From Clostridia bacterium (GTDB lineage Bacteria; Bacillota; Clostridia; Oscillospirales; Acutalibacteraceae), in NCBI GenBank assembly GCA_017455295.1, contig JAFTBJ010000118.1, forward strand, positions 1-56,081: a stretch of 56,081 nt of DNA. Direction: 5' to 3'. The position numbers and the translations under genes are program-made. Each line of letters starts with the position of its first letter. The stretch's first letter is position 1. Positions 9,956-52,392 of this stretch are shown in pieces. The notes below the pieces were generated by a model. It did no database searches. It saw only the letters and a program-made list of their open reading frames with translations, and was not told where the DNA came from.

Positions 9956-9971
9956 GAAAGGGGGAGGAAAC

Positions 9972-10856
9972 ATGGCTACAAGACGACAAAAAAAGCAAAT
10001 GGAATTTGCCGCCCCCAAAAAGCAACAGCGGTCGATCGGCGGTACGATCATGCTGGCTTTGCTGCTGTTTTTGATGGGCTCTTTCATGGCGTTCCCGCTC
10101 ATATACGCCATTTCCTCGGCCTTCAAGCCGCCTGAGGAATTCTTCCTGTTCCCGCCCCCGATCTTCCCGAACAACCCCACGGGTGAGAACTTCCGTCAGC
10201 TGGGACTGGTTATTTCCAATATGTGGATCTCTTTTGAGAGGTATCTCTTCAACAGTCTCTTTATCTCGCTGACGTCGACATTGGCGTACTTGCTGATTGC
10301 AACGCTGGCGGCGTATCCGCTGGCCAAACACGAATTCCCCGGCAAAAAGACGATGAACGAAACGATCACCCTGGCGCTGATGTTTACCCCGGCGATCACG
10401 GCGATCCCGCAGTACATCATCTTGGCCAATCTCCATCTCGTTGACAATCCGCTCGGCGTGTTGCTGCCGACGCTTGCCAGCACCACCGGCGTCTTCCTGT
10501 GCGTGCAGTACATGGAGATCCTACCGAACGCCGTGCTGGAATCCGGCCGCATCGACGGCGCGGGTGAAGGCCGTATCTGGTGGAGTATCGTGATGCCGAA
10601 CATCAAGCCGGTTATCTTCACGATGATGATCTTCCAGTTCCAGGCCGTGTGGAATACGACCGGCGCCAACATCATCTACAACGAGGCGTGGAAAACTCTG
10701 CCCGCCGCCATGGGACAGGTGGCAACGGCCGGTATCGCCCGTGCGGGCGTCGGCTCGGCTGCCGCAATCATCTTGATGATCCCGCCGATCCTGGTGTTCG
10801 TCATCTCTCAAAGTAATGTTATGGAGACGATGGCGCACTCCGGTATCAAGGATTAA
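9972..10856 (+). CDS. carbohydrate ABC transporter permease (MalG-like)
   Basis: The EAA loop reads VLESGRIDGAGEGRIWWSIVMPNIKP. It is a multi-TM protein with GGGGAGGA RBS. Confidence 0.9.
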   Translation: MATRRQKKQMEFAAPKKQQRSIGGTIMLALLLFLMGSFMAFPLIYAISSAFKPPEEFFLFPPPIFPNNPTGENFRQLGLVISNMWISFERYLFNSLFISLTSTLAYLLIATLAAYPLAKHEFPGKKTMNETITLALMFTPAITAIPQYIILANLHLVDNPLGVLLPTLASTTGVFLCVQYMEILPNAVLESGRIDGAGEGRIWWSIVMPNIKPVIFTMMIFQFQAVWNTTGANIIYNEAWKTLPAAMGQVATAGIARAGVGSAAAIILMIPPILVFVISQSNVMETMAHSGIKD

Positions 10857-10871
10857 GGGGGTGGAGAGCAA

Positions 10872-39137: not shown

Positions 39138-40367
39138 TCACGCCGCCGTATTTTGGCGGGAAGCGGGGACTGCCTTCGCGCTTTCCAGCATGGTTTCGGC
39201 AAAAATCGCATACCCGCCAGTGGGATCGCCCACCAAAACGTGGGTCACCGCGCCGATCAATTTGCCGTTTTGGATGATGGGCGACCCGCTCATTCCTTGC
39301 ACAATGCCGCCGGTCTCGGCAAGCAGGGTCTCATCTGTGATGCGAATGACCATGTGGCGGGTGGGGGAATCGCCCCGCAGATCGACCTGCTCGACACAGA
39401 CGCGATATCGCTTAGGGGTGCTGCCGTGTATGGTGGTGATGAGTTCGGCGTCTCCTTCGACGATCTCCTGCTTGTGAGCGATCGGTATGGTGGCAAGGCT
39501 GGGCGGATCGTCGGTCAGCACGCCATAAAGCCCTGTATCGCCATTTGCGGTCAGCACGCCGTAACTGCCGGCGTCGAAACTGCCTTTGAGTTCGCCCGGC
39601 GCGCCCACCGCGCCCTTAGTGACGCCGAAGATGGAAGCCGGCACGATTTCGCCAGTTGCGATCGGCATCGTTTCGCCGGTATCCACGTCGCTGATCGGAT
39701 GGCCGAGCCCGGCGAATACACCGTTTTTGCCGGTGGTAAAGGTGAGGGTGCCGATCCCGGCCGAGCTGTCACGGATCCACATCCCCGCTTTGAGACGCTT
39801 TTCCGAAACGGATGCGAGCGCGGTCAGCTGCACATCGTATTCAATTTGCCCTCTGCGCATGTGCAGCGCCAGTGGGCGGGAAGCGCTGCTTTCGATCAAG
39901 GACGCGACCTCATCGGTCTGGGAGACTTCGGCGCCGTCAATCGAGAGGATCGTATCGCCGACCCGGATCCCGCACTTTCTGGCCGGGCTTTCTGCGCCGG
40001 TGCGGGCATCAACATCCGCAAGTCCTACCACGAGAACTCCGTCGGTGAACATCTTGATGCCAAAAGGGGTGCCGCAAACGGCAACACTGGTTTCTTTTTC
40101 TACATTCACCGAAACGGTTCCGACCGGGAAGATTCCGAAAAGACGGATTTCGGCTTCATAGTCGCTGCCGGCGCGCAGGGCCGCCGCCGTTGCCGCCTGA
40201 TCGCCGGATACGGCGGCGGAGAGCGCCGAAACGGGCAGCATCAAGCCTTCCCCTTCATTGACACGAAAGGATTCCGGCAGATATCGCTGCGCTACGAATA
40301 CACATAAAAACAATCCCGCACAAATCGGGATGAGTAAAATACTGAGGATTTGAAACAGCCATCGCAT
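39138..40367 (-). CDS. spoIVB: SpoIVB peptidase (S55 family sporulation signalling protease)
   Basis: It has an N-terminal TM and a PDZ-like part (GIRVGDTILSIDGAEV). The S55 domain has GIGTLTFTTGKNGVFAGLGHPISD and the catalytic-Ser block GMSGSPIIQNGKLIGAVTHV. The conserved spoIVB-then-spo0A order is present. Confidence 0.9.
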   Translation of the reverse strand: MRWLFQILSILLIPICAGLFLCVFVAQRYLPESFRVNEGEGLMLPVSALSAAVSGDQAATAAALRAGSDYEAEIRLFGIFPVGTVSVNVEKETSVAVCGTPFGIKMFTDGVLVVGLADVDARTGAESPARKCGIRVGDTILSIDGAEVSQTDEVASLIESSASRPLALHMRRGQIEYDVQLTALASVSEKRLKAGMWIRDSSAGIGTLTFTTGKNGVFAGLGHPISDVDTGETMPIATGEIVPASIFGVTKGAVGAPGELKGSFDAGSYGVLTANGDTGLYGVLTDDPPSLATIPIAHKQEIVEGDAELITTIHGSTPKRYRVCVEQVDLRGDSPTRHMVIRITDETLLAETGGIVQGMSGSPIIQNGKLIGAVTHVLVGDPTGGYAIFAETMLESAKAVPASRQNTAA

Positions 40368-41094: not shown

Positions 41095-41325
41095 CTATTC
41101 TCGAAAATCAAACAATTTGATCACCGGGATTTGAAATAAATCAGCAAGTTCAAATACAGTATCTAAGGATACGCCGCTAACAGCCAGTTCAATCTTACTA
41201 ATTGTAGTTCTATCCAGTCCCAACTTTTCCGCCAATCTTTCTTGGGTAAAACCGTTTAGTTTTCTGTAGTAAGCAATATTTAATCCAAGCATAATATATT
41301 TGTCTTTTTGCTTCAAATTCATCAT
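41095..41325 (-). CDS. XRE family helix-turn-helix transcriptional regulator (76 aa)
   Basis: The HTH_3-like block is LGLNIAYYRKLNGFTQERLAEKLGLDRTTISKIE. GGAGG lies 5 nt before the ATG. It is divergent from the micro-ORF/ABC operon. Confidence 0.85.
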   Translation of the reverse strand: MMNLKQKDKYIMLGLNIAYYRKLNGFTQERLAEKLGLDRTTISKIELAVSGVSLDTVFELADLFQIPVIKLFDFRE

Positions 41326-41395
41326 CCTCGCCTCCTATTTTGATTTTAAGGCATATCTTTTTATTTAAAATAGATTTTAGTGCATAAAATTATGC

Positions 41396-41424
41396 TTGAC
41401 ATTCTACAAAATAAGAGATATACT
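41396..41424 (+). promoter_or_regulatory. consensus sigma-A promoter of the micro-ORF/ABC operon
   Basis: TTGACA (41396-41401), a 17-nt spacer, then TATACT (41419-24). Confidence 0.6.
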
Positions 41425-41455
41425 ACTAATTGAAGTAAAAAAAGGAGGTGTATGT

Positions 41456-41530
41456 ATGGGCTTTTTAGCATGGAGCGCCGTGTACTCTGTGGTAGTTATT
41501 GCCGCAGCCTATAAACTCCGTCGGCGTTGA
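41456..41530 (+). CDS. 24-codon micro-ORF encoding a hydrophobic cationic-tailed peptide MGFLAWSAVYSVVVIAAAYKLRRR
   Basis: It is too short to appear in the ORF track. AAAGGAGG (41441-48) lies 7 nt before ATG 41456, and the stop is TGA 41528-30. It sits about 30 nt downstream of the consensus promoter and directly upstream of the ABC genes. It encodes a single TM-length helix plus KLRRR. Confidence 0.45.
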   Translation: MGFLAWSAVYSVVVIAAAYKLRRR

Positions 41531-41540
41531 CCGTCAGCAG

Positions 41541-41574
41541 CAATATGGGCACAGTAACAACTGTGCCCATATTG
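41541..41574 (+). promoter_or_regulatory. perfect 14-bp stem-loop between the micro-ORF and the ABC ATPase gene
   Basis: CAATATGGGCACAG / CTGTGCCCATATTG with a TAACAA loop. No U-tract follows, so it is a possible attenuator, processing site or stabiliser. Confidence 0.5.
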
Positions 41575-41596
41575 TCATGGAAAAAGAGATGATAAT

Positions 41597-42322
41597 ATGC
41601 TTCAAATAGAACATCTATTTAAAAACTTTGGTCACCAAGAAATAATTAAAGACCTTTCTCTTACCATACATAAAAATGAAATCACTGCACTGATAGGCAA
41701 GAATGGTGCTGGAAAAACCACATTGATACGACTGATATCGGGAATTTTGCAACCTGATTTTGGAAAAATATCTTTTCCAAAAGATATTTCTATTGGGGTA
41801 CACCTCGGAGGAAACTCGGAATTATATGATAATTTGACCGGCGAAGAATCTATAAAATACTTTGCAAAACTTAAACATATGCCTGCAACATTGATTGATA
41901 AAAGGATAAATGAATTAAACGATATTTTAAAATTTAGCGAATTTTTCCGAGCGCCTGCTCGCACGTATTCAAGGGGCATGCGGCAAAAAATAACGTTTGC
42001 CATTTCTGTGATTCATGATCCTGATTTTTTGCTTCTGGATGAGCCTACTACGGGACTTGATTTGGAGGCGGCAGGCGATGTCGTACACTTTATTCAATAC
42101 CTGAAAACCAATAAAAAAGCTATCTTCATATCCACTCATAACGTATATGAAATATCAGAATTAAGCGATCGAATTGCACTACTGTCAAATGGTAAGATAG
42201 CAGTCGACAGTCCGACGTCTAATTTCTTTAAATCTTGCGCTCATAATAATAAAATTGAATTTATTATAGATCGGCTTAATGGAGAAACTTATCATGAAAA
42301 GCATCGTTTTGACGATAATTAA
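41597..42322 (+). CDS. ABC transporter ATP-binding protein (ABC-2/NatA-like exporter type)
   Basis: Walker A is GKNGAGKTT. The signature-like block is YSRGMRQKITFA. Walker B is FLLLDEPTTGLD. The H-loop is STHN. Confidence 0.9.
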   Translation: MLQIEHLFKNFGHQEIIKDLSLTIHKNEITALIGKNGAGKTTLIRLISGILQPDFGKISFPKDISIGVHLGGNSELYDNLTGEESIKYFAKLKHMPATLIDKRINELNDILKFSEFFRAPARTYSRGMRQKITFAISVIHDPDFLLLDEPTTGLDLEAAGDVVHFIQYLKTNKKAIFISTHNVYEISELSDRIALLSNGKIAVDSPTSNFFKSCAHNNKIEFIIDRLNGETYHEKHRFDDN

Positions 42323-43367
42323 AAGAGAATTCCAGGAAATATTCAGAGACAAAACTTGTATTATTCTGATTTGCATTTCTACATTTATATTTCCGATTCT
42401 AAGCATTGGGCTAAATATAATCGTCCCGAATAAAAGCCTTCATATTCGTGTCGCAGTAGAGTCTCAAAGCGATGTTTGTACAGATATATTTACCGCCATA
42501 CAATCCAATCCCGACACTCAATATATTGACATTATACAAAGCAGCAACGCCTATGAACAATTAAAAAACAATGATATAGATTGTATTATTTCTATAAAAG
42601 ATCATGTTATTAGCCTAATTGCCAATCCCTATTCATACTCATCTATATCCTCCACAGCAAAATTTGCTGAAGTTTTTGAAAATGTGTACCTAAGTAGTAT
42701 CAACCATAATACAATCACATTTAGAATGACTGATGAACAACAACAAGCAATTAATATGCCAACTGCTATGGTTACTATTTTTGCTCCAGCTGTGTTTGTT
42801 ATGGTGATTTTCCAAGGAGTATCCGGCTTTGCTAATGATATGTTTGCAGGAGAGAGGGAAAGAAAAACAATAGAATTGTTAATACATTCGACAAAAAGGC
42901 CTTATATTTTATTTGGAAAGCTAATCGCTTTAGCAATTATATCACTTCTAAATACAGGAATAGCTTTATTCTCGTATAGCCTATCGTGTAGATTTCCATT
43001 TTCAAGTCCCTTAAGCGCGCTACTAACTCTTGTGTGTTTGTCGATTTTGTCAATAGCAGCTTCTTTAATATCTCTTACTGTTTCCATGCATTGTAAAAAA
43101 ATAAGGCAAGCTCAATTCATTAATGAATTATTTACGCTCCTTCCAACAGGTATGACTGTCGCTGTTTGCTTTGAAATGATAAATAGGAATCACATACTTG
43201 TGAGAATAATGCCTATTTTAAATTTAGTTTCTTCTTTTTCAACTGTAGTGAACGGAAATTGGAATATTTCAGAGCTCATCTTAAGCATCGTCATTAGCAT
43301 TGCGTTTATCATACTCTTAATTCTATACGATATCCGCTACATAAACTCAGAGAAACTTATTCTCTAA
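42294..43367 (+). CDS. ABC-2 family permease (NatB-like, large extracytoplasmic loop after TM1)
   Basis: The N-terminus reads MKSIVLTIIKREFQEIFRDKT. TM1 is followed by a roughly 130-aa loop and then five more helices. GGAGA precedes ATG 42294. The gene overlaps the ATPase gene end, suggesting translational coupling. Confidence 0.8.
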   Translation: MKSIVLTIIKREFQEIFRDKTCIILICISTFIFPILSIGLNIIVPNKSLHIRVAVESQSDVCTDIFTAIQSNPDTQYIDIIQSSNAYEQLKNNDIDCIISIKDHVISLIANPYSYSSISSTAKFAEVFENVYLSSINHNTITFRMTDEQQQAINMPTAMVTIFAPAVFVMVIFQGVSGFANDMFAGERERKTIELLIHSTKRPYILFGKLIALAIISLLNTGIALFSYSLSCRFPFSSPLSALLTLVCLSILSIAASLISLTVSMHCKKIRQAQFINELFTLLPTGMTVAVCFEMINRNHILVRIMPILNLVSSFSTVVNGNWNISELILSIVISIAFIILLILYDIRYINSEKLIL

Positions 43368-43373
43368 AAGAAA

Positions 43374-43422
43374 AAGCCCTCCTATGATACTTTTTTTCAT
43401 CGTATCATAGGAGGGCTTTTTC
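43374..43422 (+). terminator. rho-independent terminator
   Basis: 17-bp stem AAGCCCTCCTATGATAC / GTATCATAGGAGGGCTT (43374-90 / 43402-18) followed by TTTTC. Confidence 0.8.
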
Positions 43423-43493
43423 TATTGTTCGTTTTTACTGGACTTGTTCAAAAACACCCTTTGCAGCAGCCCGCTTTTTGCGGTTATAAGATC

Positions 43494-44235: not shown

Positions 44236-44340
44236 TCAAAGCACCATCCACTCAAGAATTTTATGGATCGCCGCGTCCATCTTCACCGGATCGGAAAAAG
44301 CGGTGATCAGCGTAACACGTTTTTGCGAGAACGCAATCCG
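44236..44340 (-). pseudogene. eroded 3'-terminal fragment of an alpha/beta hydrolase gene homologous to 47887-48642
   Basis: The minus strand reads ...ADHRF(+1 nt)SDPVKMDAAIHKILEWMVL*. The intact gene reads ...ADHRFSDPVKMDAAIHEILRFFSF*. Both copies have 27 nt from stop codon to the shared 27-mer. One extra A (44296-44300 run) breaks the frame. No 5' part of the gene is present. Confidence 0.65.
44263..44289. repeat. 27-nt perfect direct repeat, left copy (partner 47914-47940)
   Basis: ATGGATCGCCGCGTCCATCTTCACCGG is identical at both sites. Similarity continues imperfectly for about 20 nt to the right and, at protein level, 27 nt to the left. Confidence 0.9.
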
Positions 44341-44369
44341 AATACTGGCGATTTTTGAAAGTAAGACGG

Positions 44370-44398
44370 TTGTGATTTTGAAATAGGTATGGTATACT
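44370..44398 (+). promoter_or_regulatory. candidate sigma-A promoter with extended -10 for the TIR gene
   Basis: TTGTGA (44370-75), a 17-nt spacer ending in TGG, then TATACT (44393-98). Confidence 0.5.
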
Positions 44399-44445
44399 GA
44401 TTATATAGAAAAGTGCCTTTGAGGATAGAAATGAGGATAGTGTGT

Positions 44446-46638
44446 ATGACCGAAAAGCAGTATAAAGCATTTATCAGTTATCGCCATATAGAACCGGATA
44501 TGCAAGTGGCGGAGCGATTGCAAAAAATGATCGAAACCTATAAGCCTCCCAAAGAATTGGGGCTGACATTTGAAAATCGACGTGTGTTTCGAGATGTTTC
44601 CGAATTGCCGACGAGTGGAAATCTCGGTGATGATATTCGCACGGCTTTGGAGCATTCGGAGTTTTTGATCGCTATTTGCTCGCCGGAGTATCCCCGTTCA
44701 AAGTGGTGCATGGAAGAATTGCGCTATTTTTTGGAATTGCATGGCGGCCACAATGATCGTATTCTCACGTTGCTTGTTGATGGAAAACCGGAACAGTCGT
44801 TCCCTGAAGAATTGTGTTATTCCATAAAAGAAACGCTGAACGAAGCGGGAGAAACCGTTACGGTACACACGAAGATTGAGCCGCTCGCTGCTAATATTGT
44901 GATGCCAACAAAAAAAGAATCTTTGGCCAAATTAAAAACAGAGTTTTTGCGTCTGGCAGCACCGATGCTCGGATGCGGATTTGATGATTTGTATCGGCGA
45001 GAGAAGAAACGTGCGGCACAGCGGCGGCATCGGCGGCTTGGGTTGGCCTTTGCGGTGTTGGGTGTCATAGCGGCGATCAGCATCACTTCTGCAGTTACGA
45101 TCATGGGGAAAAACCGGGAGATCGAAACAAAGAATCAGACATTATCTATCGAAAATGCCCGCCATTTAGCGACCGAATCGGAAGCGCAATATGAAAAGAA
45201 GGAATTGATTTCTTCTATTCATTCCGCACTGGAAGCTTTGCCGCAGGATGGAGAAGATAAACCGGTTGTACCGGAAGCGGAATACGCGTTAGCTCGTGCG
45301 CTTGGCGCATTTGATTATCAACAAATGTCCCCCGTTCATCAGTTGGAACATAAAGCGACAGTTGAAGACATCACGTTTGCCGGAGAAGGACAGACGATTG
45401 TTTCACAAGATGCGACGGGAATTTATGTGTGGGACGCGCAGACGGGCCGTTTGCTCCATAAGTATACGGGACAGGACGAAGAATTTCGGTCGGATAGCGC
45501 CGTTTCCGAGGATTCTTTATCGCTTTGGTATGAACCGATATTGTCGATTCGGGAATCTTTGACCGGCAGCAACGGAAACGGCAAATTTCGTTTGTCACTG
45601 CATGCAGCGTTTGGCATTCTGCGCGTGGATCGCATGAAATCGACCGAACCGGAAATCAGTTTGCAAAAGCATCCGGTTTATCTTTACAATTCCGACAAAA
45701 TTGTTTGGCGATTGGATGAGAGTACGGGAGATATTTTGTGGAAAGCCGGGATATCGGATCAGGCATATGGGTATACGGATATTTTCTTTTTGAGTGACGG
45801 TATTGTTCGCATATACCATGAACGAGTCGAGCCTCCGGCCGGATATATAATATGGAACGGTGAAGGCGAACGTACTTTTGCAGAATGGGTAGATCCCGAA
45901 ACGGGCAAGGTGACAGAAACGGTGGATGTCACGCCGCTGGTCGGAAAGTCTAAGCTTTGGCCGCTTAACTTGGAAATTCAAACCTTTTCGGATAAAGAAA
46001 TTCGATGTTCGTATTATGACAGTTTCTTTGTGTGTCCGATAAAAGAGGGAGTGGTCATCCCTTCAAAGGAAACAGAGATTCTTTCACAAGATGTTTCGTT
46101 TTCGGATATGGAGAAATATGCCGATTGGTACGTTCTTGATCAGGCGCTTGTTCGCACTTGCCCGACGAATAGCCAGGCAACATTGATGGGATTATTTCAG
46201 CCGTATGAAATCGTACGTTTTGATGATAAGGGAACTACCGAATTGTGGAAAACAACCGTCAAGGATTTGATATATAGCCCTGACGCTATGGTGTATTTTT
46301 CAGCCGAAGATAGTGGCAATTATACGGACCTTTTGGCCATAATCGGTGACGAAAAGATAGCAGTGATTGATGCTCGCACAGGCGAAGTTATCCATGAATA
46401 TCTGTTTGATTATGAAATTGTCACATTCTATTATAGTCAAAACGGTATATTGTATGTTATCACCGGAAACGGGCAGGAGATAGCGTTGATCCTTTCTGGA
46501 ATAGAAAAAGGACAGAATTTCTATTTTGCTGATTTAACCGGTGAATTTGCGATGCCGGTTGCGGCGGGCGCATATTATGATCACCACTATGTTACGCCAA
46601 TAAAAATGATCATGTTGCATATATTCAAAAGATTGTAA
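44446..46638 (+). CDS. TIR domain / single TM helix / WD40- or PQQ-like beta-propeller protein (N-terminal part; probably continues in 46659-47816)
   Basis: GAGGA lies 8 nt before ATG 44446. The TIR blocks are KAFISYRH, VFRDVSELPTSGNL and FLIAICSPEYPRSKWCMEELRYF. The basic stretch RREKKRAAQRRHRR is followed by the TM helix LGLAFAVLGVIAAISITSAVTIM (45037-45105). Propeller-like repeats follow (IYVWDAQTGRLLHKY, IVWRLDESTGDILWKAG, IAVIDARTGEVIHEY). Confidence 0.85.
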   Translation: MTEKQYKAFISYRHIEPDMQVAERLQKMIETYKPPKELGLTFENRRVFRDVSELPTSGNLGDDIRTALEHSEFLIAICSPEYPRSKWCMEELRYFLELHGGHNDRILTLLVDGKPEQSFPEELCYSIKETLNEAGETVTVHTKIEPLAANIVMPTKKESLAKLKTEFLRLAAPMLGCGFDDLYRREKKRAAQRRHRRLGLAFAVLGVIAAISITSAVTIMGKNREIETKNQTLSIENARHLATESEAQYEKKELISSIHSALEALPQDGEDKPVVPEAEYALARALGAFDYQQMSPVHQLEHKATVEDITFAGEGQTIVSQDATGIYVWDAQTGRLLHKYTGQDEEFRSDSAVSEDSLSLWYEPILSIRESLTGSNGNGKFRLSLHAAFGILRVDRMKSTEPEISLQKHPVYLYNSDKIVWRLDESTGDILWKAGISDQAYGYTDIFFLSDGIVRIYHERVEPPAGYIIWNGEGERTFAEWVDPETGKVTETVDVTPLVGKSKLWPLNLEIQTFSDKEIRCSYYDSFFVCPIKEGVVIPSKETEILSQDVSFSDMEKYADWYVLDQALVRTCPTNSQATLMGLFQPYEIVRFDDKGTTELWKTTVKDLIYSPDAMVYFSAEDSGNYTDLLAIIGDEKIAVIDARTGEVIHEYLFDYEIVTFYYSQNGILYVITGNGQEIALILSGIEKGQNFYFADLTGEFAMPVAAGAYYDHHYVTPIKMIMLHIFKRL

Positions 46639-46658
46639 ACAATGCAGATTTTACGGTA

Positions 46659-47816
46659 TTGGATTATGGCGAGGGCCGTATCGAAGCGTTTAGCGATTCC
46701 GGGAGATATGCGTTGTGTGTGGATGAGAGCGACGAGGCCTTTGAAGCGGCAATTTATGATACTGTCACAAAGAAGCGACAAACAATCGAATCGCTGCAGG
46801 GAACGACGTTCGGCAATGCTGCATTTATTGGTGACGGCGCGGTCTTCATTCGCACGCAAACCGATTATGAACATCGTTGGGAAACCATGGTGCAGCTACC
46901 GTCCATGCAGTGTATTATGGTGGAGGACGATCGCTTGTCCGAAATTAGCACATATACGGCGTTCTTGTCCGGCAGCAGTGAATGTGCATACGTGGGAGAA
47001 ACCTCTGACACGCTGCTTTCTATTAACGCGCAAGGACAGGTGCAGGCCATTTCTACAGAGTTGGTCGATGAATACGGATATACCAAGTTGGATCGAACAT
47101 TGCAGAATATATCCACGGTTTCCCTATCACCGTCCGGACAATCGGTATTTGCGAGTATAAAAGATACGGAGACTTCTGAAATTCAAGCGCAGGTCTTGCA
47201 TTTTGAACATGATCTGACAACGACAGTGCTCGCTATATCGCCGGAAGACATGGAGAGTCTGTCCATTGTATCGGTATGCTGGATGTCGGAGGATACGGTG
47301 GCCTTATTGCTTTCAAACAGAACGGTGCGCGCCTTTTCTGCCGTCACCGGGGAAGAGATGTATCGTTTTATAATTGACGACGTGTTTCCGGCTGTGATTG
47401 GCGTGGTTGCTGTCGATGCGGATCATATGGCGATGCTGTGTTGCGATCAAATGCTATATGAGATGGATCAAAACGGCTATACCGGCCGTGCCGTCAAGCT
47501 TGAGCAGGAAGAAAACGCTTTTGACAAGGAAATACGCGGTGCTACCGGTGCAAATAGCTCGTATCTTTCTTCCTATAAAACAAGTCGCGATAACGAATTG
47601 TATATTGTGTGGGGCTCATCCGACAAAACCGCTTGGATCGTAGATTTGCAAGACTGGAAAATCCGATATCGCATCGAGCATTATATTCAGGCGTTACCGG
47701 ATGGGGATCGTGTCTTGATCGACGACTACAGCGCGGGGGTTATTGGTTGGTTCCCGGTTTACAGCACAAAGCAACTGGTCGATAAAGCGACAGCATATTT
47801 GTCGAGCTTTTCTTGA
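46659..47816 (+). CDS. beta-propeller-like repeat protein; most likely the frameshifted C-terminal continuation of the TIR gene
   Basis: There is no RBS and no ATG. The track start is a TTG, and the frame is open back to 46581, overlapping the end of the TIR ORF. The repeat style matches the upstream ORF (SDSGRYALCVDE, LSPSGQSVFASIKD, VRAFSAVTGEEMYRF, AWIVDLQDWKIRYRI). Confidence 0.6.
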   Translation: MDYGEGRIEAFSDSGRYALCVDESDEAFEAAIYDTVTKKRQTIESLQGTTFGNAAFIGDGAVFIRTQTDYEHRWETMVQLPSMQCIMVEDDRLSEISTYTAFLSGSSECAYVGETSDTLLSINAQGQVQAISTELVDEYGYTKLDRTLQNISTVSLSPSGQSVFASIKDTETSEIQAQVLHFEHDLTTTVLAISPEDMESLSIVSVCWMSEDTVALLLSNRTVRAFSAVTGEEMYRFIIDDVFPAVIGVVAVDADHMAMLCCDQMLYEMDQNGYTGRAVKLEQEENAFDKEIRGATGANSSYLSSYKTSRDNELYIVWGSSDKTAWIVDLQDWKIRYRIEHYIQALPDGDRVLIDDYSAGVIGWFPVYSTKQLVDKATAYLSSFS

Positions 47817-47832
47817 TTCTTGATCACAATAT

Positions 47833-47881
47833 CCATCATAAAATACGGCTGCCACAAAATGGCAGCCGTATTTTATGATGG
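47833..47881. terminator. bidirectional terminator, perfect 22-bp stem
   Basis: CCATCATAAAATACGGCTGCCA / TGGCAGCCGTATTTTATGATGG (47833-54 / 47860-81) with a CAAAA loop. It lies between convergent genes. Confidence 0.85.
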
Positions 47882-47886
47882 TATAT

Positions 47887-48642
47887 TTAAAACGAGAAAA
47901 AGCGAAGGATCTCATGGATCGCCGCGTCCATCTTCACCGGGTCGGAAAAGCGATGGTCGGCGCCGTCAAACGCCAGAAAGGGAATGCCGTTTCGTTCGGA
48001 AAAGGCCTTGTCGATGTCAAACGAAATGATCTCATCTTTGGTGCCGTGCAGGATCAGCAGTTTGTCCGCATACGGGACAAACGCGTCGCTGTGCGCGATA
48101 TCGTGATCGGACAATTCCTGCAAGGCCTCCGGAGACAGCTTGATCTTGCGATCAAATCCCGCGAGAACGTCTTTGCCGCGGTGCAGCTTTTGCCGATCGT
48201 CTTCGGACAGGATGACGGTGGTCAGAGATTCATAGATGTTGATCGCCGGGCAGCGCAGTGCGATTTTTTCAAAGACGCCAGGGGACTGCAGCATGTAATT
48301 CAGCAGCAAATACCCGCCGAAGCTGGTGCCGTAGGCGAACAGCTTCCTGGGTTGAAAACGCTGTTTGGCGTAAGCGGTGACGATGTCGAGATAGCGAAAG
48401 CATTCGTCGAGTCGCAGTGCTTTGCGGGCGTCCTGCCCGTGGCACGGCCAATCAAACGCGATGACGGCCACGGATTTATATTTGGAGAGCACACGATCGG
48501 CAAACCGCGCGATTGCGTGGCTGTCCTTGCTCCCGCCGAATCCGTGACAGCAAATAATCACGCGGTCGGCTGCTCGTTTGTCGGCAGCAAACAGCTTGCA
48601 GCGCACGCTGAATCCTGCTTCGTTGATATCAAAATAGGTCAT
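47887..48642 (-). CDS. alpha/beta hydrolase fold protein (esterase/peptidase S9-like)
   Basis: Carries VIICCHGFGGSKDS, the nucleophile elbow AYGTSFGGYLL, LILHGTKDEI and GADHRF (catalytic His region). ATG 48642 is preferred over the track start 48702. Confidence 0.8.
   Translation of the reverse strand: MTYFDINEAGFSVRCKLFAADKRAADRVIICCHGFGGSKDSHAIARFADRVLSKYKSVAVIAFDWPCHGQDARKALRLDECFRYLDIVTAYAKQRFQPRKLFAYGTSFGGYLLLNYMLQSPGVFEKIALRCPAINIYESLTTVILSEDDRQKLHRGKDVLAGFDRKIKLSPEALQELSDHDIAHSDAFVPYADKLLILHGTKDEIISFDIDKAFSERNGIPFLAFDGADHRFSDPVKMDAAIHEILRFFSF
47914..47940. repeat. 27-nt perfect direct repeat, right copy (partner 44263-44289)
   Basis: The sequence is identical to the left copy. It lies inside the 3' end of the intact hydrolase CDS. 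Confidence 0.9.
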
Positions 48643-48806
48643 GAGGTTCCCGCCTTTCTTTTCGGCTGATACCAGTATGCCACCGCTCCAAAGCTTTGTC
48701 AAGGTGGTCGGTTCTGCCTTGACAAGAAAACCGGAAAATGGTATACTTTTAATGGCGAAATATCAAAATTATTAGTTAATATGAACAAACACAAGGGGGA
48801 ATTTGT

Positions 48807-50849
48807 GTGAAAATGATGAAGTGTATCGGCGCTGTCGCGTGCACAATTGCGTTGATGCTGTCGGCTTTGACCCTGATGGGCGCGTCGGTATGGGCGCTTC
48901 CCGGCGGTGGACAGGCGGGAGATGCCAACAACGTGGCGTTTGGGTGCGATCTGTCATTCTGGAACGTGGGCGGCGGCAATCTCAATTATTCGCTTGTAGA
49001 CTTTGCCAAAATGAAAGCGGACGGCTGCGAATTTGCGATCATGCGTATCGGCGTGGAGCTCACCTCAGGCACCGATGGGATGGATCGCGCCTTTTTACAG
49101 ATGTATAAAAACGCGCGCGCGGCGGGCGTGAAGCTCGGCGTCTATTTCTACGCGCTCGCGAAAACGCACGACGAAGCGGTGCAGGACGCCCAGTGGGTGA
49201 TCGAGCAAATTGAAGAAAACGATCTCTATTTTGAGTATCCGATCTATTATGACGTCGAAGATCCCGGCAGCGACACCCGTCCAAGCCACTATTCGCTCAA
49301 TTCGGCGCAGATGACCGATCTCTGCCTCGGCTGGGCGGAGACGCTCGCGGCGGCGGGGTATATGCCCGGCGTGTATTCGACCTATGAAAATGTGATCAAG
49401 CTGCAAAGCAGTTATACCGACAACTATGAGGTCTGGTACGCGAAGGTAAAGTATAATCGTCATGTGAACGACGGCGAATCGCAGCTCAACCCTTTGACCG
49501 AGTCCCATAAAGATATGTGCGGCATGTGGCAGTATTCGTGGTATGACTATGAATACGACGGCATCGGCCTCGATATGCTCGACGTCGACGTGGCGTATAA
49601 AGATTATCCCGCGATCACCGCGACCTATGGCTATAACAATGTCCCGAAAGTGGTCGATGGGCCGGTACATCAGCTGGTCGGTGCCGGTAAGCTCGGCACG
49701 GTCAACAACGCGGCGTTCGGCTGCGACCTGTCGTCGTGGGATGTGGGCGGCGGCAGCGTGCTCGACTATTCGCTTCTGGACTTTGAAAAAATGAAGGCGG
49801 ACGGCTGTGAGTTTGCCATCCTGCGCATCGGTTACGAAGGCGCCGCGACCCGCAAAGACACGATGGATCCCTCCTTCCTGCAACTGTATCAAAACGCCCG
49901 CGCGGCGGGGCTGAAGCTCGGCCTTCACTTCTATTCGCTCGGCAAGAGCTATGTGGAAGCGCAGCGGGACGCTTTGTGGGTGATCGGCGTCATTGAAGGC
50001 AATAACCTTTCGTTTGAATACCCGCTCTATTACGATATGACCGATCCCGGCGACTCTGCTTCCGGCCGCGTTTCTCACGCCTCGCTTTCGGATGCGGCGC
50101 TGACGCAGACGGCGCTCGGCTGGGCGGAAACGCTGGAAGCGGCGGGCTATTTCCCCGGCGTCCATTCCTCGACGAACATTCTCTCGAAGCTGCAAAGCGG
50201 CTACACCGACTATTATGACGTTTGGTGCGCCGCCGTCAAATTCGATCGCCCGGCAGGCGAGGGCGAAGCGCAGTACGACCCGCAGACCAAGACGATGATG
50301 GACGTCGCCGGTATGTGGCAGTACGCGTGGTATGACTACAACTACGACGGCGTCGGCCGTGACACGCTCGACGTCGATGTGGCCTATAAAAACTATCCCG
50401 CTATTATGGCAGCAAACGGCTACAACAACGTGACGGTCGACCTCACGGCGCTGACCTCCGACACGGTCACCGTCGGCGACACCACGGTGTCAAATGTAGC
50501 GATCGGACAGACGGTCACGGAGCTTAAAGCGTCGTTCGATCAACCGTCGTCGATGATCGCGGTCTATGACAAAGACGGTAATGCGGCGGCGGATACCGAC
50601 ACGGTTAAAACCGGCATGATGGTGAAGCTTATCTTGGACGGCAACGTGGCGGCGACTTATACGCTTGCCGTGCTCGGCGACATCGGCGGCACCGGCGAAG
50701 TGAATTCCAAATCCATCCGCGACCTGCTGTGCACGCTGACCGGCGGCGGGGAACTGACCGCGCTGCAAACGCTTGCGGGCGATTTCACCGGCGACGGCGC
50801 GGTGACCACGGCGGACGTGCGCCGCATGCTCAGCCTGTTGGTTGGATAA
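48807..50849 (+). CDS. secreted protein with two tandem GH25 muramidase (lysozyme) domains and a C-terminal dockerin
   Basis: It has a signal peptide. GH25-like blocks occur twice: FGCDLSFWN...MKADGCEFAIMRIG...AGVKLGVYFY...YPIYYDVEDPG, then FGCDLSSWD...MKADGCEFAILRIG...AGLKLGLHFY...YPLYYDMTDPG. The C-terminal dockerin is GDIGGTGEVNSKSIRDLL...GDFTGDGAVTTADVRRML. The start is GTG 48807 or ATG 48813. Confidence 0.8.
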   Translation: MKMMKCIGAVACTIALMLSALTLMGASVWALPGGGQAGDANNVAFGCDLSFWNVGGGNLNYSLVDFAKMKADGCEFAIMRIGVELTSGTDGMDRAFLQMYKNARAAGVKLGVYFYALAKTHDEAVQDAQWVIEQIEENDLYFEYPIYYDVEDPGSDTRPSHYSLNSAQMTDLCLGWAETLAAAGYMPGVYSTYENVIKLQSSYTDNYEVWYAKVKYNRHVNDGESQLNPLTESHKDMCGMWQYSWYDYEYDGIGLDMLDVDVAYKDYPAITATYGYNNVPKVVDGPVHQLVGAGKLGTVNNAAFGCDLSSWDVGGGSVLDYSLLDFEKMKADGCEFAILRIGYEGAATRKDTMDPSFLQLYQNARAAGLKLGLHFYSLGKSYVEAQRDALWVIGVIEGNNLSFEYPLYYDMTDPGDSASGRVSHASLSDAALTQTALGWAETLEAAGYFPGVHSSTNILSKLQSGYTDYYDVWCAAVKFDRPAGEGEAQYDPQTKTMMDVAGMWQYAWYDYNYDGVGRDTLDVDVAYKNYPAIMAANGYNNVTVDLTALTSDTVTVGDTTVSNVAIGQTVTELKASFDQPSSMIAVYDKDGNAAADTDTVKTGMMVKLILDGNVAATYTLAVLGDIGGTGEVNSKSIRDLLCTLTGGGELTALQTLAGDFTGDGAVTTADVRRMLSLLVG

Positions 50850-50868
50850 ACAAAAGAAGAGGATTAGC

Positions 50869-52392
50869 ATGATGATCAAACGTATAACAGCCATCGTGAT
50901 GGCGCTGCTCCTTTTGATGACGATGTCGATGACAGCGACGGCGGAAGCGGTGATCCCGCGCGCCGTCGTCATCCAGTGGCAGGATGAATGGAAAAATTAC
51001 TATTACGGCGGCCAGAATCTGTATGACACCGGCTGCGGTGTCTTTTCAACCGTCAACGCGGTCGGCTATCTCACCGGCAACGAGATGAGTGTGGTGGAAG
51101 TCGCCGACTGGGCGTATGAAGTGCGGGCGCTCAACTATTATGCCGGCGGCACCGATCTCAGCATCTTCTTCCCGAAGCTGCAAGGACGGTTTGGAGAAGA
51201 ATATGGCTTTACGGTGGCGGACGGCGTGTGGCAAGGCGTTTCGTCCACCACCTTGAAAAACCATCTGAAAAACGGCGGCGTCGCCGTGGCGCGTGTGCCG
51301 GGACATTATATCGCGCTGGTGGGGTATGAGTCCTCAACCGGCTATTTCCATGTGTACGACAGCGCGCCGAGCAGCGCCCGCGGTACCGGAAACGGGGATG
51401 CGTGGGTGAGCGAGTCGTGGCTGACGACCAGCGCCAAACTCAAGGTGGACTGGTATTGCATGCTGACCCGCACCGGCACGGTGATCAACCGTCCCTATGG
51501 CGGCACCTCGCAAACCGGTACCATCGCCGATAAATGCGGGACCTATCGTGTCGCGACCGAAACGCTCAACGTGCGCTACGGCCCGAGCACGGATTATACC
51601 GCATTCACAACCGTTCATTCAGGCGATCTGCTCAACGTGACCGAGCTCGCCTCCAATGGTTGGGGCAAATTCAAGACGTCTTCCGGTGTGGATGGCTGGT
51701 CAAACGTGAGCTACTACGGCGCCTATATCGGCGTGGATGCGCTGGCTTGCGATGTGGTCGTCACCTCCGGCGCTATTACCTATACGTATTATGGTGACGG
51801 CAGCATGGTGCTGACCAATAACGGATCGACGGCGGCTTCGGCGGAGCTGATTTTGCCGCAGGGGATCGGCACACTCACAACGCCCTATTTCGGCATCCAT
51901 ACAGCACCGCTCTATGGCAACGGCTACGGCTTCGGCTTCAAAAACAGCGGCAGCGGCTACACGATGATGCGGGATTGCTATTCGGGCGATCAACTGGTTG
52001 AGGAAACCAGCGCACCCTATATGAAAACCGCCGAGAAAATGGAGATCGATCTGTCCGATTGGTGGAAACCGGCATCTGGCGACAAGATCGACCGTGTGCG
52101 CATCGATCTCGCGGCTTCGTCGTCGCTCAAAATCAACTATCTCTATTTCGCCGCGGAGTCCGGCGTCGTGACCGACACAAGCTATAACCTTCCCCGCACA
52201 GCGACGGCGCAAAGAGGCGACGTGACCGGGGACGGCGTCGTGAGCACCAGCGACGCGCGGGCGATCATCGCGCATCTTTCCGGCGGCAAAACGCTTGTGC
52301 AACCGGCGCTGCTCGCGGCGGACTACAACGGCGACAACGAGGTGACCACCACCGATGTGCGCCTCTTGCTCAAAGATGTAGCGGCGGTGTGA
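50869..52392 (+). CDS. secreted papain-fold (peptidase C39-like) / SH3b / unknown domain / dockerin protein, paralog 1
   Basis: It has a signal peptide. The Cys block is LYDTGCGVFSTVNAVGYL. The His block is VPGHYIALVGYESSTGYFHVYDS. The SH3b-like part is GTYRVATETLNVRYGPSTDYTAFTTVHSGDLLNVTELASNGWGKF. The C-terminal dockerin is GDVTGDGVVSTSDARAII...ADYNGDNEVTTTDVRLLL. Confidence 0.7.
   Translation: MMIKRITAIVMALLLLMTMSMTATAEAVIPRAVVIQWQDEWKNYYYGGQNLYDTGCGVFSTVNAVGYLTGNEMSVVEVADWAYEVRALNYYAGGTDLSIFFPKLQGRFGEEYGFTVADGVWQGVSSTTLKNHLKNGGVAVARVPGHYIALVGYESSTGYFHVYDSAPSSARGTGNGDAWVSESWLTTSAKLKVDWYCMLTRTGTVINRPYGGTSQTGTIADKCGTYRVATETLNVRYGPSTDYTAFTTVHSGDLLNVTELASNGWGKFKTSSGVDGWSNVSYYGAYIGVDALACDVVVTSGAITYTYYGDGSMVLTNNGSTAASAELILPQGIGTLTTPYFGIHTAPLYGNGYGFGFKNSGSGYTMMRDCYSGDQLVEETSAPYMKTAEKMEIDLSDWWKPASGDKIDRVRIDLAASSSLKINYLYFAAESGVVTDTSYNLPRTATAQRGDVTGDGVVSTSDARAIIAHLSGGKTLVQPALLAADYNGDNEVTTTDVRLLLKDVAAV

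Follow-up and report, generated by a model that had tools for sequence, protein, structure and literature searches.

Does a lone Clostridia gene that couples a TIR domain to a predicted extracytoplasmic sensor act by itself, or is it what remains of a larger module? The question is raised by positions 44446–47816 (+) of a 56,081-nt stretch of DNA (here termed the window), in which one gene is read as two ORFs, 44446–46638 and 46659–47816. A first-pass annotation had proposed a self-sufficient, single-protein envelope sensor. The reading that we lean towards, with modest confidence, is that the window carries the remnant of a two-gene module in which an extracytoplasmic sensor would control a TIR-made nucleotide acting on an RyR/RCK or DHH partner.

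One gene in two frames

The first ORF begins with an ATG that lies 8 nt downstream of a GAGGA ribosome-binding site (44433–44437, +), comprises 730 aa counted from that ATG, and ends at a premature stop (46636–46638). By tblastn, full-length homologs of 1132–1141 aa are colinear with frame 1 up to around 46554 and thereafter with frame 3 (46611–47810). Residues 1–706 and 722–1126 of homolog P0002 are matched in the window gene, and residues ~722–1138 of P0002, P0003, and P0013 match 46611–47810 in frame 3. Insertion of a single nucleotide at any point of 46578–46637 restores an ORF of 1123 aa, and likeness to the family motif YVTA-x6-AYIQ in a three-frame translation narrows the lesion to 46595–46606 (+), where one base is missing, either between ACG and GCC or in a run of five A residues. 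The broken frame, mentioned in passing by the first-pass annotation, is a 1-nt frameshift at this site. The A5 run (46601–46605) falls within the interval, and an assembly error there may account for the frameshift.

An uninterrupted ORF of about 900–1270 aa is the norm for the family, from which the window gene departs through the frame change between 46595 and 46606. The window protein retains every invariant column of the family alignment and differs at only nine of the 133 columns that are highly conserved, which places it 24th of 110; thus, it bears no sign of long decay. No relative more than 42% identical to the window protein was found to confirm an intact allele.

The TIR domain

The protein opens with a cytoplasmic TIR domain (aa 1 to ~175; 44446–44970, +), as had been proposed, and this rests on Pfam, PDB phmmer alignments, and the modelled fold of a homolog. 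Pfam TIR_2 (PF13676) matches aa 9–115 of the window protein with 45.4 bits (cut-off 28; E-value 1.3e-11), and Pfam TIR (PF01582) does so with 38.8 bits (cut-off 21.3; 1.1e-9). The AlphaFold2 (AF2) evidence comes from the full-length homolog P0002, which is 41% identical to the window protein and in which strands and helices alternate over residues 6–175 in a flavodoxin-like alpha/beta fold (pLDDT about 80–90).

The segment SKWCMEELRYFL (44698–44733) contains E91 (codon 44716–44718), previously singled out as the catalytic-type glutamate. PDB phmmer aligns it with the Glu of WCxxEL (WCL(D/E)EL) in AtTIR, Roq1, RUN1, L6, and Cat1, at the catalytic position in helix alphaC, in agreement with that assignment. 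None of the 110 family members departs from W87, C88, or E91, and the window protein reads W87-C-M-E-E91. TLR2, which is non-enzymatic, likewise possesses a Glu at the aligned position, and this residue would be necessary, not sufficient, for NADase activity. In bacterial TIRs, the W-x3-E Trp was reportedly tied to cyclase activity by Manik and colleagues in 2022.

Among Thoeris TIR profiles, the window protein scores 18.0 bits against Pfam ThsB_TIR (cut-off 21.2), 5e-4 against PADLOC ThsB, and 20.7 bits against NCBIfam ThcB4 (cut-off 220), while relatives P0244–P0246 reach 36.7–47.1 bits with ThsB_TIR.

Membrane helix, stalk, and ectodomain

A basic stretch, RREKKRAAQRRHRR (aa 184–197), is followed by the sole transmembrane (TM) helix (aa 202–220), and together these occupy 44995–45105 (+), as judged from hydropathy and K+R bias. 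The helix is the only hydrophobic one (hydropathy 2.26 over 19 aa), and REKKRAAQRRHRR lies directly N-terminal to it. Within 15 aa of the helix, the mean number of K+R residues is 6.9 on the N side versus 3.2 on the C side, with the N side richer in all 110 members. This favours the earlier proposal of one TM helix with the TIR inside: the protein is predicted to be an N-in, type-II, single-pass protein with a cytoplasmic TIR and propellers outside.

The helix is followed by a putative extracytoplasmic helical stalk (45106–45339, +), delimited by the homolog model and by conservation. In the P0002 model, the TM helix runs on as one long helix (helices 179–207, 211–257, 261–270, and 283–293), and the stalk region is conserved among relatives (57% mean pairwise identity).

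The ectodomain is divided by the frameshift. Its first part, a candidate beta-propeller in frame 1 (45340–46638, +), is supported by tblastn, Pfam near-matches, and the homolog model with its Foldseek matches; its second part, in frame 3 and running to the stop (46596–47816, +), corresponds by tblastn to a second propeller and a C-terminal helix. The P0002 model (pLDDT 86.8) is all-beta across 299–1108, and its best Foldseek matches are tandem WD40 double propellers, including Utp21 (4nsx, 2.5e-18) and Aip1, with E-values for such tandem propellers reaching 1e-19. These matches suggest a tandem beta-propeller and, with the colinearity of the two frames, uphold the claim that an extracytoplasmic propeller region of some 900 aa extends into the next ORF. 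The WD40/PQQ profiles that the first-pass annotation had recommended gave a near-match with Pfam PQQ_2 in the ectodomain, albeit just below the cut-off (26.7 versus 27.6 bits), and other propeller models scored far below theirs.

A large receptor family of Clostridia

The window protein is a member of a large, uncharacterised receptor family that is restricted to Clostridia among the relatives listed. At least 577 relatives occur in GTDB species genomes, a count of clusters at 50% identity gives no fewer than 150 with E<1e-117, and the 80 loci kept are all from Clostridia or unclassified Bacillota MAGs. From the N to the C terminus, members are predicted to comprise a W-x3-E TIR, a basic stretch, one TM helix, a helical stalk, and a tandem beta-propeller of 800–950 aa. 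Mean pairwise identity is 75% in the TIR versus 40% in the ectodomain. Sources label these proteins merely as 'TIR domain-containing protein', and the architecture looks undescribed in the searchable literature.

The insertion that carries the gene

A direct repeat of 45 nt (91% identity, spacing 3651), whose alignment can be extended to ~60 nt with one indel, brackets a 3.6-kb insertion bearing only the TIR gene. The left copy (44254–44312, −) is an orphan remnant of an alpha/beta-hydrolase 3′ end, reading AFSDPVKMDAAIHKILEWMVL followed by a stop, and the right copy (47905–47949, −) lies within the 3′ end of an intact alpha/beta-hydrolase gene (47887–48702; Pfam Hydrolase_4 and Abhydrolase_6). 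The insertion is thus bracketed by a duplicated 45–60-nt piece of the neighbouring hydrolase gene, and the earlier view of a horizontally acquired segment is supported. GC content is 0.44–0.48 over the TIR gene versus about 0.55 in the flanks, and the immediate neighbours are an aquaporin gene and the hydrolase gene.

A promoter of its own had also been claimed. A promoter-like site is present at 44370–44398 (+; TTGTGA-17-TATACT, the −10 hexamer being preceded by TG), 48 nt 5′ of the ATG; however, it is a consensus match, and the scan found nine such sites in the region against 7.0 ± 2.5 expected from shuffles, which leaves its position as the sole argument. Just 3′ of the TIR stop, where the TIR and hydrolase genes converge, a perfect hairpin with 22-nt arms (47833–47881; 100% complementary) is likely a bidirectional terminator.

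No partner gene accompanies the receptor, as the first-pass annotation had stated: HMM searches for RyR, the 650-aa partner described below, or DHH gave no match in window ORFs of at least 60 aa (56 kb), tblastn for the RyR and DHH partners gave a best E-value of 0.16 inside unrelated genes, and no Thoeris-type effector (SIR2/SLOG, Macro, RyR, or DHH) was found in the window. The window copy is most likely inactive because it lacks a partner and its ectodomain is broken. It could at most yield a truncated receptor (TIR, TM helix, and first propeller), whose sole possible output would be NAD+ consumption.

Partner genes in relatives

Related loci speak against a single protein that suffices by itself. 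Of 90 such loci, 70 (78%) have the receptor in tight linkage with either of two partners that exclude each other: an RyR-domain protein in 39 loci, a DHH-DHHA1 phosphoesterase in 31, and both in none. The remaining 20 have no partner within about 4–6 kb, several of them lying on truncated contigs; given these loci, the receptor may act alone or with unlinked genes.

The gap between receptor and RyR gene has a median of about 12 nt (39 loci). A 650-aa RyR-type gene lies 0–17 nt downstream of the receptor in 30 loci in all (L001, L003, L005, L007, and L008 among them), and stand-alone RyR genes of 96–106 aa lie just upstream in L009, L074, and L084, with Pfam RyR E-values of 1.1e-34 (L009) and 2.7e-25 (L074). 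The 500-aa DHH-DHHA1 partner is encoded within 150 nt of the receptor in 28 of 31 loci.

The 650-aa partner comprises N-terminal membrane helices, a tandem RCK 'gating-ring' fold, and a C-terminal RyR domain (PF02026). Its AF2 model (pLDDT 86, pTM 0.80) matches the GsuK RCK domain (4e-7), CASTOR/DMI1 gating rings, TrkA, and Slo1/Slo2.2 in Foldseek; the membrane part appears channel-like, as read only from this monomer model. The RyR region scores below the Pfam gathering threshold (15.6–19.6 versus 27.4 bits), and its assignment rests on PDB phmmer matches to RyR repeats (6uhi, 1.2e-10; RyR3 R12, 2.4e-5; Bacteroides thetaiotaomicron 3nrt, 3e-4) and transitive HMM links. The residues E-H-R-R-W are invariant within it.

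In the receptor tree, the RyR-partnered clade has the window copy as its sister, so the solo state of this copy is derived here, and the DHH-partnered receptors of L019, L020, L029, and L030 are nested within that clade. A survey of homolog neighbourhoods for known defence genes, suggested by the first-pass annotation, returned none that recur among 136 neighbour proteins from 25 loci; PADLOC matches were scattered and mostly to generic domains, and the flanks of annotated loci hold mostly housekeeping or transport genes. A role in phage defence is thereby neither favoured nor contradicted.

Proposed signalling route and its rivals

In the module of which the window gene would be a remnant, the fast-evolving propellers would read an extracytoplasmic cue on the outer side of the membrane. 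This cue would alter receptor clustering via the stalk and TM helix, thereby bringing the cytoplasmic TIRs together, and the assembled TIRs would cleave NAD+ or cyclise it to a cADPR-type nucleotide. Binding of the nucleotide by the RyR domain of the partner would then gate the channel-like RCK protein; alternatively, the small RyR proteins that stand alone may bind or cleave the nucleotide, or the DHH enzyme may hydrolyse it. RyR-domain proteins of phages bind the TIR products 2′/3′cADPR with nM affinity or cleave them (PMC13232231). As both partner types are nucleotide-handling, a TIR-made signal is favoured over plain NAD+ depletion.

Plain depletion is central to the autonomous sensor, in which an extracytoplasmic cue, for instance wall damage or an adsorbing phage, would trigger NAD+ loss through the receptor's own TIR (abortive infection) with no partner. 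Such a sensor is unlikely, given the tightly linked nucleotide-handling partner in most loci, partner swaps inside one receptor clade, a window copy that is frame-broken and sister to the partnered clade, and housekeeping or transport flanks without recurrent defence genes. In its favour are the partnerless window gene with its own promoter-like site and probable terminator, the 20 related loci without either partner type nearby, the invariant catalytic-type Glu and W-x3-E motif, and fast ectodomain evolution, as expected under arms-race pressure.

Somewhat less probable again is a gene that is intact in the real genome (A6, not A5, at 46601–46605) with a partner or effector outside the window. 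The homopolymer within the lesion interval, the presence of one lesion only with the downstream frame open for 1.2 kb, and the retention of conserved residues speak for an intact gene; however, the repeat-bracketed insertion holds the TIR gene alone, the partners of relatives almost always lie within 25–150 nt, and no close relative confirms the intact allele. Least probable is a non-enzymatic scaffold TIR as in animal TLRs, binding RyR/RCK or DHH proteins directly: TLR2, which is not an NADase, also has a Glu here, and tight operonic linkage would suit physical complexes equally well, but RyR (which binds cADPR isomers; PMC13232231), RCK, and DHH are all nucleotide-binding or -hydrolysing folds, the unrelated RyR and DHH partners are interchangeable, which a shared small molecule explains more easily than a shared protein interface, and W87, C88, and E91 do not vary even between members that have diverged very far.

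Relation to known systems

Among the closest known systems are the anti-phage systems of Thoeris, which pair a ThsB TIR with an effector activated by its signal, especially type X (ion-channel effector), type II (Macro-TM), and type V (channel-like DUF2270) (10.64898/2025.12.03.692087). In both Thoeris and the present family, a TIR gene is coupled to a protein with a nucleotide-binding module, often membrane-embedded, some family members (P0244–P0246) pass Pfam ThsB_TIR, and by analogy a TIR-made, NAD+-derived signal would activate the neighbour. Thoeris TIRs, however, are small, cytosolic, and located in defence islands, whereas in the family the TIR forms the cytoplasmic end of a single-pass receptor whose extracytoplasmic part is a double propeller of 900 aa, family contexts are mostly housekeeping, and the window copy lacks any partner. 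Neither RCK+RyR nor DHH is among the effectors of the Thoeris survey, and RyR, DHH, RCK, propeller, WD40, and PQQ are absent from its text and accessible supplements (10.64898/2025.12.03.692087).

Phage RyDEP (PMC13232231) and B. thetaiotaomicron 3nrt contain the same PF02026 domain as the partner C-terminus and the stand-alone neighbours, and the motifs H-x2-W, GW, and (H/N)P-x-LV are common to all of these. The phage proteins are counter-defence sponges or glycosidases; in contrast, the family RyR is host-encoded, linked to the TIR producer, and usually fused to RCK and membrane helices. With the RCK-gated prokaryotic K+ channels and transport regulators GsuK, MthK, and TrkA, the partner appears to share a tandem Rossmann/RCK fold that follows a membrane domain at the N terminus, in which the model places a pair of long helices and a short segment resembling a re-entrant loop. 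Unlike these, it lacks the canonical TVGYG filter (the conserved loop being NAFGFKAS) and has the extra C-terminal RyR.

The Toll-like logic of inverted polarity that had been suggested applies in part. Animal Toll-like/IL-1 receptors likewise cross the membrane once, sense with extracellular repeats, and carry their TIR in the cytoplasm, but their ectodomain is LRR or Ig and their TIR C-terminal, as against the propeller, N-terminal TIR, and type-II orientation of the family; moreover, Toll-like receptors act with adaptor TIRs, whereas the family TIR bears an enzymatic motif. The analysis yielded no sign of direct descent between the family and either these receptors or the SARM1/CD38 axis discussed below. 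TIR-STAND and TIR-WD40 conflict proteins of multicellular bacteria (PMC7159879, PMC8195603) also combine a TIR with a propeller as presumed sensor, yet they are cytosolic with a STAND NTPase, while the family has no NTPase and a TM helix parts TIR from propellers.

A possible outside-in pathway in Clostridia

The adjacency of RyR and DHH genes in relatives points to an undescribed outside-in nucleotide signalling pathway. More tentatively, and as a possibility rather than an expectation, Clostridia may possess a true outside-in TIR pathway, in which a cue at the propellers would lead to a cADPR-type nucleotide and thence to RyR/RCK gating or DHH clearance, the window holding a decayed solo copy. 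By analogy, such a pathway would share with the SARM1/CD38-cADPR-ryanodine receptor axis a TIR-type enzyme, an ADPR-derived nucleotide, and a channel-associated RyR repeat domain, although in bacteria a small RCK-type protein takes the place of the 5000-aa ryanodine receptor. If true, this would be the first bacterial TIR receptor sensing outside the cell, as well as a bacterial counterpart, and possibly an evolutionary source, of the animal TIR(SARM1)-cADPR-ryanodine-receptor axis.

Receptor anatomy

The TIR gene at 44446–47816 (forward strand) encodes a membrane protein whose architecture, comprising a TIR domain, a transmembrane (TM) helix at around residue 180–260, and a C-terminal region of 800–950 aa, recurs in 90 of 90 loci from relatives. 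Residues 9–115 of the window protein match Pfam TIR_2 (1.3e-11; 45.4 bits against a cut-off of 28), and Pfam TIR is matched at 1.1e-9. Within this domain, SKWCMEELRYFL is encoded at 44698–44733, with codon 44716–44718 specifying E91; phmmer alignments with solved structures pair this residue with the glutamate of WCxxEL in the plant proteins AtTIR (3jrn), Roq1, RUN1, and L6 and in the CRISPR-associated Cat1. None of the 110 aligned family members varies at W87, C88, or E91, so the TIR domain with a catalytic-type glutamate that the first-pass annotation had recognised is upheld. A glutamate also occupies the E91-aligned position in TLR2, which is not an NADase, and E91, although necessary, therefore does not suffice for activity.

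REKKRAAQRRHRR precedes the only hydrophobic helix of the protein (aa 202–220). Lysine and arginine residues per 15 positions average 6.9 on its N-terminal side versus 3.2 on its C-terminal side, with the N-terminal excess present in 110/110 family members; by the positive-inside rule, this places the TIR domain in the cytoplasm, as originally proposed. For the full-length homolog P0002, an AlphaFold2 (AF2) model built from a 54-sequence alignment (pLDDT 86.8; pTM 0.72) shows a TIR fold leading into one long helix, which forms an outer stalk as well as the TM segment, followed by an all-beta region at residues 299–1108. The closest structural matches to this model are tandem WD40 double propellers, namely Utp21 (4nsx, 2.5e-18), WD proteins of the SSU processome, and Aip1. 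The propeller ectodomain predicted from the sequence is thus favoured by structural comparison, although Pfam PQQ_2 reaches only 26.7 bits in the window protein, just below its cut-off of 27.6.

Output-domain swaps, in which the conserved ectodomain is fused to a cytoplasmic domain of another kind, were sought because they would prove receptor logic. The candidates, P0244, P0245, and P0246 (relatives of 1190–1240 aa), were rejected, as they too begin with a TIR domain and differ by an additional segment of ~100 aa between this domain and the TM helix.

Partner genes

In five annotated loci, a gene of ~650 aa without a Pfam call lies 0–17 nt downstream of the receptor gene, and an HMM search places this partner directly downstream in 30 loci. 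Pfam RyR matches its C-terminus below threshold (1e-3 to 2e-2); phmmer searches of the PDB with the same region return an RyR1 chimera (6uhi, 1.2e-10), RyR3 repeat12 (2.4e-5), and 3nrt from B. thetaiotaomicron (3e-4), and the partner preserves E-H-R-R-W and GW, which are invariant motifs of the RyR domain. Judged by sequence, the C-terminus, at residues ~520–651 in P0131, is a divergent RyR domain. An HMM of it retrieves stand-alone RyR proteins encoded just upstream of more distant receptors at L009 (5707–5997; Pfam RyR 1.1e-34; RyR2 repeat 3.6e-19), L074 (Pfam RyR 2.7e-25), and L084. Other neighbours ending in RyR are 470 aa (L046, L055, and L062) or 920–975 aa (L010, L039, and L087) in length. 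The partner's invariant D639 was considered as the counterpart of the catalytic aspartate of RyDEP and rejected, since phmmer, in aligning the partner with RyR repeats, places it three residues off.

In its AF2 model (pLDDT 86; pTM 0.80), the 650-aa partner has four N-terminal helices, of which two are long and two form a short pair around a conserved NAFGFKAS loop, followed by a tandem Rossmann region and, lastly, the RyR domain. The best structural matches to the Rossmann region are RCK gating rings: GsuK (4gvl, 4e-7), CASTOR, DMI1, TrkA, and Slo1/Slo2.2. In the partner P0131, residues 38–70 (e.g., L001:11539–11637) form a short helix–loop–helix with the nearly invariant sequence QNSINAFGFKAS between the two long membrane helices; its position resembles that of the pore loop in 2-TM cation channels, but P0131 lacks their TVGYG filter.

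A second partner, unrelated to the first, is a DHH-DHHA1 phosphoesterase of ~505 aa (Pfam DHH 1e-15 to 1e-17), which adjoins the receptor gene in 31 loci in varying orientation; at L020, it is encoded at 9484–11037. Across the 90 loci, 39 carry an RyR partner, 31 carry DHH, none carries both, and 20 carry neither, several of these last lying on truncated contigs. The gap between receptor and RyR genes has a median of ~12 nt, and DHH lies within 150 nt in 28 of its 31 loci. The view of the receptor as a single protein without partners consequently fails for the family, in which an RyR or DHH gene adjoins it in 70/90 loci. At L009:13412–14521, an ADP-ribosylglycohydrolase gene (PF03747) lies three genes downstream of the receptor, and at L010:2590–3099, a gene for CinA (NMN amidohydrolase family) lies upstream; either may be due to chance.

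A tree built by neighbour joining from the first 330 receptor residues nests the DHH-partnered loci L019, L020, L029, and L030 within an RyR-partnered Ruminococcus clade, and the Lachnospiraceae clade is mostly DHH-partnered. The exchange of RyR and DHH inside one receptor clade is a recent partner swap, which suggests that both partners act on the same molecule. Comparison of these four loci with their near relatives L026, L021, and other Ruminococcus finds either RyR/RCK or DHH downstream, never both.

In the window, the reported lack of a partner holds: tblastn of three 650-aa partners over the 56 kb gave a best E-value of 0.16, and HMMs for RyR, the partner, and DHH matched none of the ORFs of at least 60 aa. 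Weak partner matches at 31.6 kb and 7.5 kb fall inside long unrelated ORFs and were dismissed as chance. In the tree, the window protein branches as the sister of the RyR-partnered clade, and L009 and L010, both with RyR partners, lie outside the two as deeper outgroups; the solo state of the window copy is therefore derived.

The window copy and its insertion

The window gene is divided between a 730-aa ORF in frame 1, which starts with the ATG at 44446 and stops at 46638, and a 385-aa ORF in frame 3 (46659–47816). The second had been taken as the remainder of the same protein, and rightly: full-length homologs (1132–1141 aa) align colinearly with both pieces, with 44446–46554 in frame 1 corresponding to residues 1 to ~700 (40%–41% identity) and 46611–47810 in frame 3 corresponding to residues ~722–1138 (25%–26% identity). 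The two ORFs are hence a single gene, interrupted because one base is missing. Inserting one base anywhere within 46578–46637 regains an uninterrupted ORF of 1123 aa, and comparison with the family motif YVTA-x6-AYIQ confines the lesion to 46595–46606, an interval containing an ACG/GCC junction and an A5 run at 46601–46605. The lesion may be either a real mutation or a homopolymer assembly error. Programmed −1 frameshifting at the A_AAA_A of this run (46601–46605) is unlikely, given that there is no canonical X_XXY_YYZ heptamer at this site and that the homologs, more than 100 in number, are all single ORFs.

The window copy deviates from the family in just 9 of 133 highly conserved columns (rank 24 of 110), and any inactivation is therefore recent. 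With its partner missing and its second propeller broken, the window copy is most likely an inactive remnant; the 730-aa product, if translated, would retain the TIR domain and the TM helix together with approximately the first propeller.

The gene stands between a divergent upstream aquaporin gene (MIP, 3.8e-53) and an intact, convergent alpha/beta hydrolase gene downstream. A promoter-like site with an extended −10 element lies at 44370–44398; such sites are no commoner in the region than in shuffled sequence. A hairpin with perfect 22-nt arms (47833–47881) follows the stop codon. Bracketing the gene is a direct repeat (44254–44298, or to 44312 in extended form, and 47905–47949) with 91% identity over 45 nt, the alignment extending to ~60 nt with one indel. 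Its right copy belongs to the 3′ end of the intact hydrolase gene, while its left copy, read on the minus strand, encodes AFSDPVKMDAAIHKILEWMVL followed by a stop, an orphan remnant of the hydrolase C-terminus. The ~3.6 kb in between (44299–47904) thus looks like a discrete insertion and appears to carry the TIR gene only; its GC content is 0.44–0.48 against ~0.55 in the flanks.

Upstream lies a module of still lower GC content (41095–43426; 0.34–0.36 versus 0.55), with an XRE-type HTH gene (41095–41325, minus strand), an ABC ATPase (41597–42322), an ABC-2 permease (42279–43367), and, at its end, a hairpin with 25-nt arms (43366–43426). This is probably a separate horizontal acquisition beside the TIR insertion. 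A protein with two GH25 lysozyme domains (48807–50849), a C39-like peptidase/SH3/dockerin protein encoded directly after it (50842–52392), and SpoIVB (39138–40367) suggest a spore-forming, cellulosome-type Clostridial host.

Distribution and genomic context

Among 5.8 billion proteins searched, 444 are relatives of the window protein, the best at 41% identity; most are 1115–1160 aa in length, and those that are named are designated simply 'TIR domain-containing protein' from Ruminococcus or Oscillospiraceae. Neither this protein set nor the GTDB genomes yielded a relative above 41%–42% identity. In GTDB, scanned at one genome per species, at least 577 relatives occur, and the 80 loci kept from it belong to Ruminococcus, Oscillospiraceae, Lachnospiraceae, Clostridiaceae, Butyrivibrio, Roseburia, Blautia, and unclassified Clostridia/Bacillota MAGs. 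When 1.84 billion cluster representatives were searched with a profile, 5165 matched at E ≤ 1e-30, a figure that includes partial matches to the TIR or propeller and so is an upper bound; the best 150 of the 5165 are all below 1e-117. The receptor gene occurs in two tandem copies at L044:6001–12307, and at L058:4097–5938, a second, different TIR protein (613 aa, beginning YDVFISYRR) is encoded immediately upstream of the receptor.

Annotated homolog loci are flanked mostly by genes for housekeeping or transport (ribosomal proteins with IF3 and SpoIIR, ParAB with SerS, ABC transporters, LuxS, and FtsH), and one locus lies beside an integrase–primase element. PADLOC models gave scattered matches to 136 neighbour proteins from 25 loci, each in one to three proteins and most arising from generic domains (ABC/AAA ATPases, radical SAM, and RNase T). 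The neighbour scan does not support residence of the family in defence islands. Mean pairwise identity across the family is 75% for the TIR domain versus 40% for the ectodomain, and so fast-evolving an ectodomain is compatible with a defence or a physiological role alike. In the window, PADLOC matches to known defence systems remain at the level of the TIR domain (SAVED_TIR 2e-8, to the TIR alone; ThsB 5e-4); apart from generic hits to HTH and ABC ATPase models, neither the ectodomain nor the neighbours match anything. Receptor, 650-aa partner, and DHH protein are all without a model in PADLOC and NCBIfam, and none of the three scores above cut-off against any NCBIfam family.

A putative small-molecule relay

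Given two unrelated, interchangeable nucleotide-handling neighbours and a TIR motif (W-x3-E) that does not vary, receptor and partner are most economically read as a small-molecule relay, with anatomy and gene linkage observed and each biochemical step being what we infer. A cue would reach the outer side of the membrane and cluster the receptor via its stalk and TM helix, whereupon the TIR domains would assemble; self-association is required by TIR NADases. The assembled TIR would then produce an NAD+-derived nucleotide, to be bound by the RyR domain of the channel-like RCK protein or, alternatively, buffered or cleared by the small RyR proteins or the DHH enzyme.

The bacterial TIR systems known to us (Thoeris types I–XI, TIR effectors of CBASS and Pycsar, and TIR-STAND) all sense inside the cell. 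The family shares with Toll-like receptors a common receptor logic of TIR domain, TM helix, and large extracellular sensor, but its TIR carries a predicted enzymatic motif. Its closest functional counterpart, by analogy, is Thoeris; a survey from December 2025 catalogues 29 putative types of it and validates seven new ones (types V–XI), type X having an ion-channel effector (10.64898/2025.12.03.692087). The TIRs described there are cytosolic ThsB-type proteins, whereas the family TIR is part of a membrane receptor, and the available text and supplements of the survey make no mention of RyR, DHH, RCK, propeller, WD40, or PQQ (10.64898/2025.12.03.692087). Within the literature searched, whose coverage is incomplete, no TIR–TM–propeller receptor and no TIR–RyR or TIR–DHH operon is described. 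Absent from PADLOC, NCBIfam, and this literature, the family is classed as a new form of TIR signalling, its novelty lying in a membrane receptor as producer and in new partner types, with the window copy as a degenerate member. The receptor architecture of the first-pass annotation therefore stands, but its autonomy does not extend to the family, the window copy being both solo and broken.

For the same reasons, the window copy is unsuited as an experimental representative; better ones are the intact two-gene loci of Ruminococcus flavefaciens isolates, such as L013 (ATCC 19208) and L017 (MA2007). The interchangeable RyR/RCK and DHH neighbours provide a testable hypothesis for the step that follows once the TIR fires. 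To our knowledge, the link between cADPR and the ryanodine receptor in animals has long been without a defined binding site. The RyR connection is timely, since recent work on phages shows the RyR repeat domain binding and cleaving cADPR isomers made by TIRs, with ligand residues common to animal RyR repeat12 (PMC13232231). A bacterial operon that unites a producer with an RyR-domain, channel-like protein would make the cADPR–RyR relation directly testable in a simple system.
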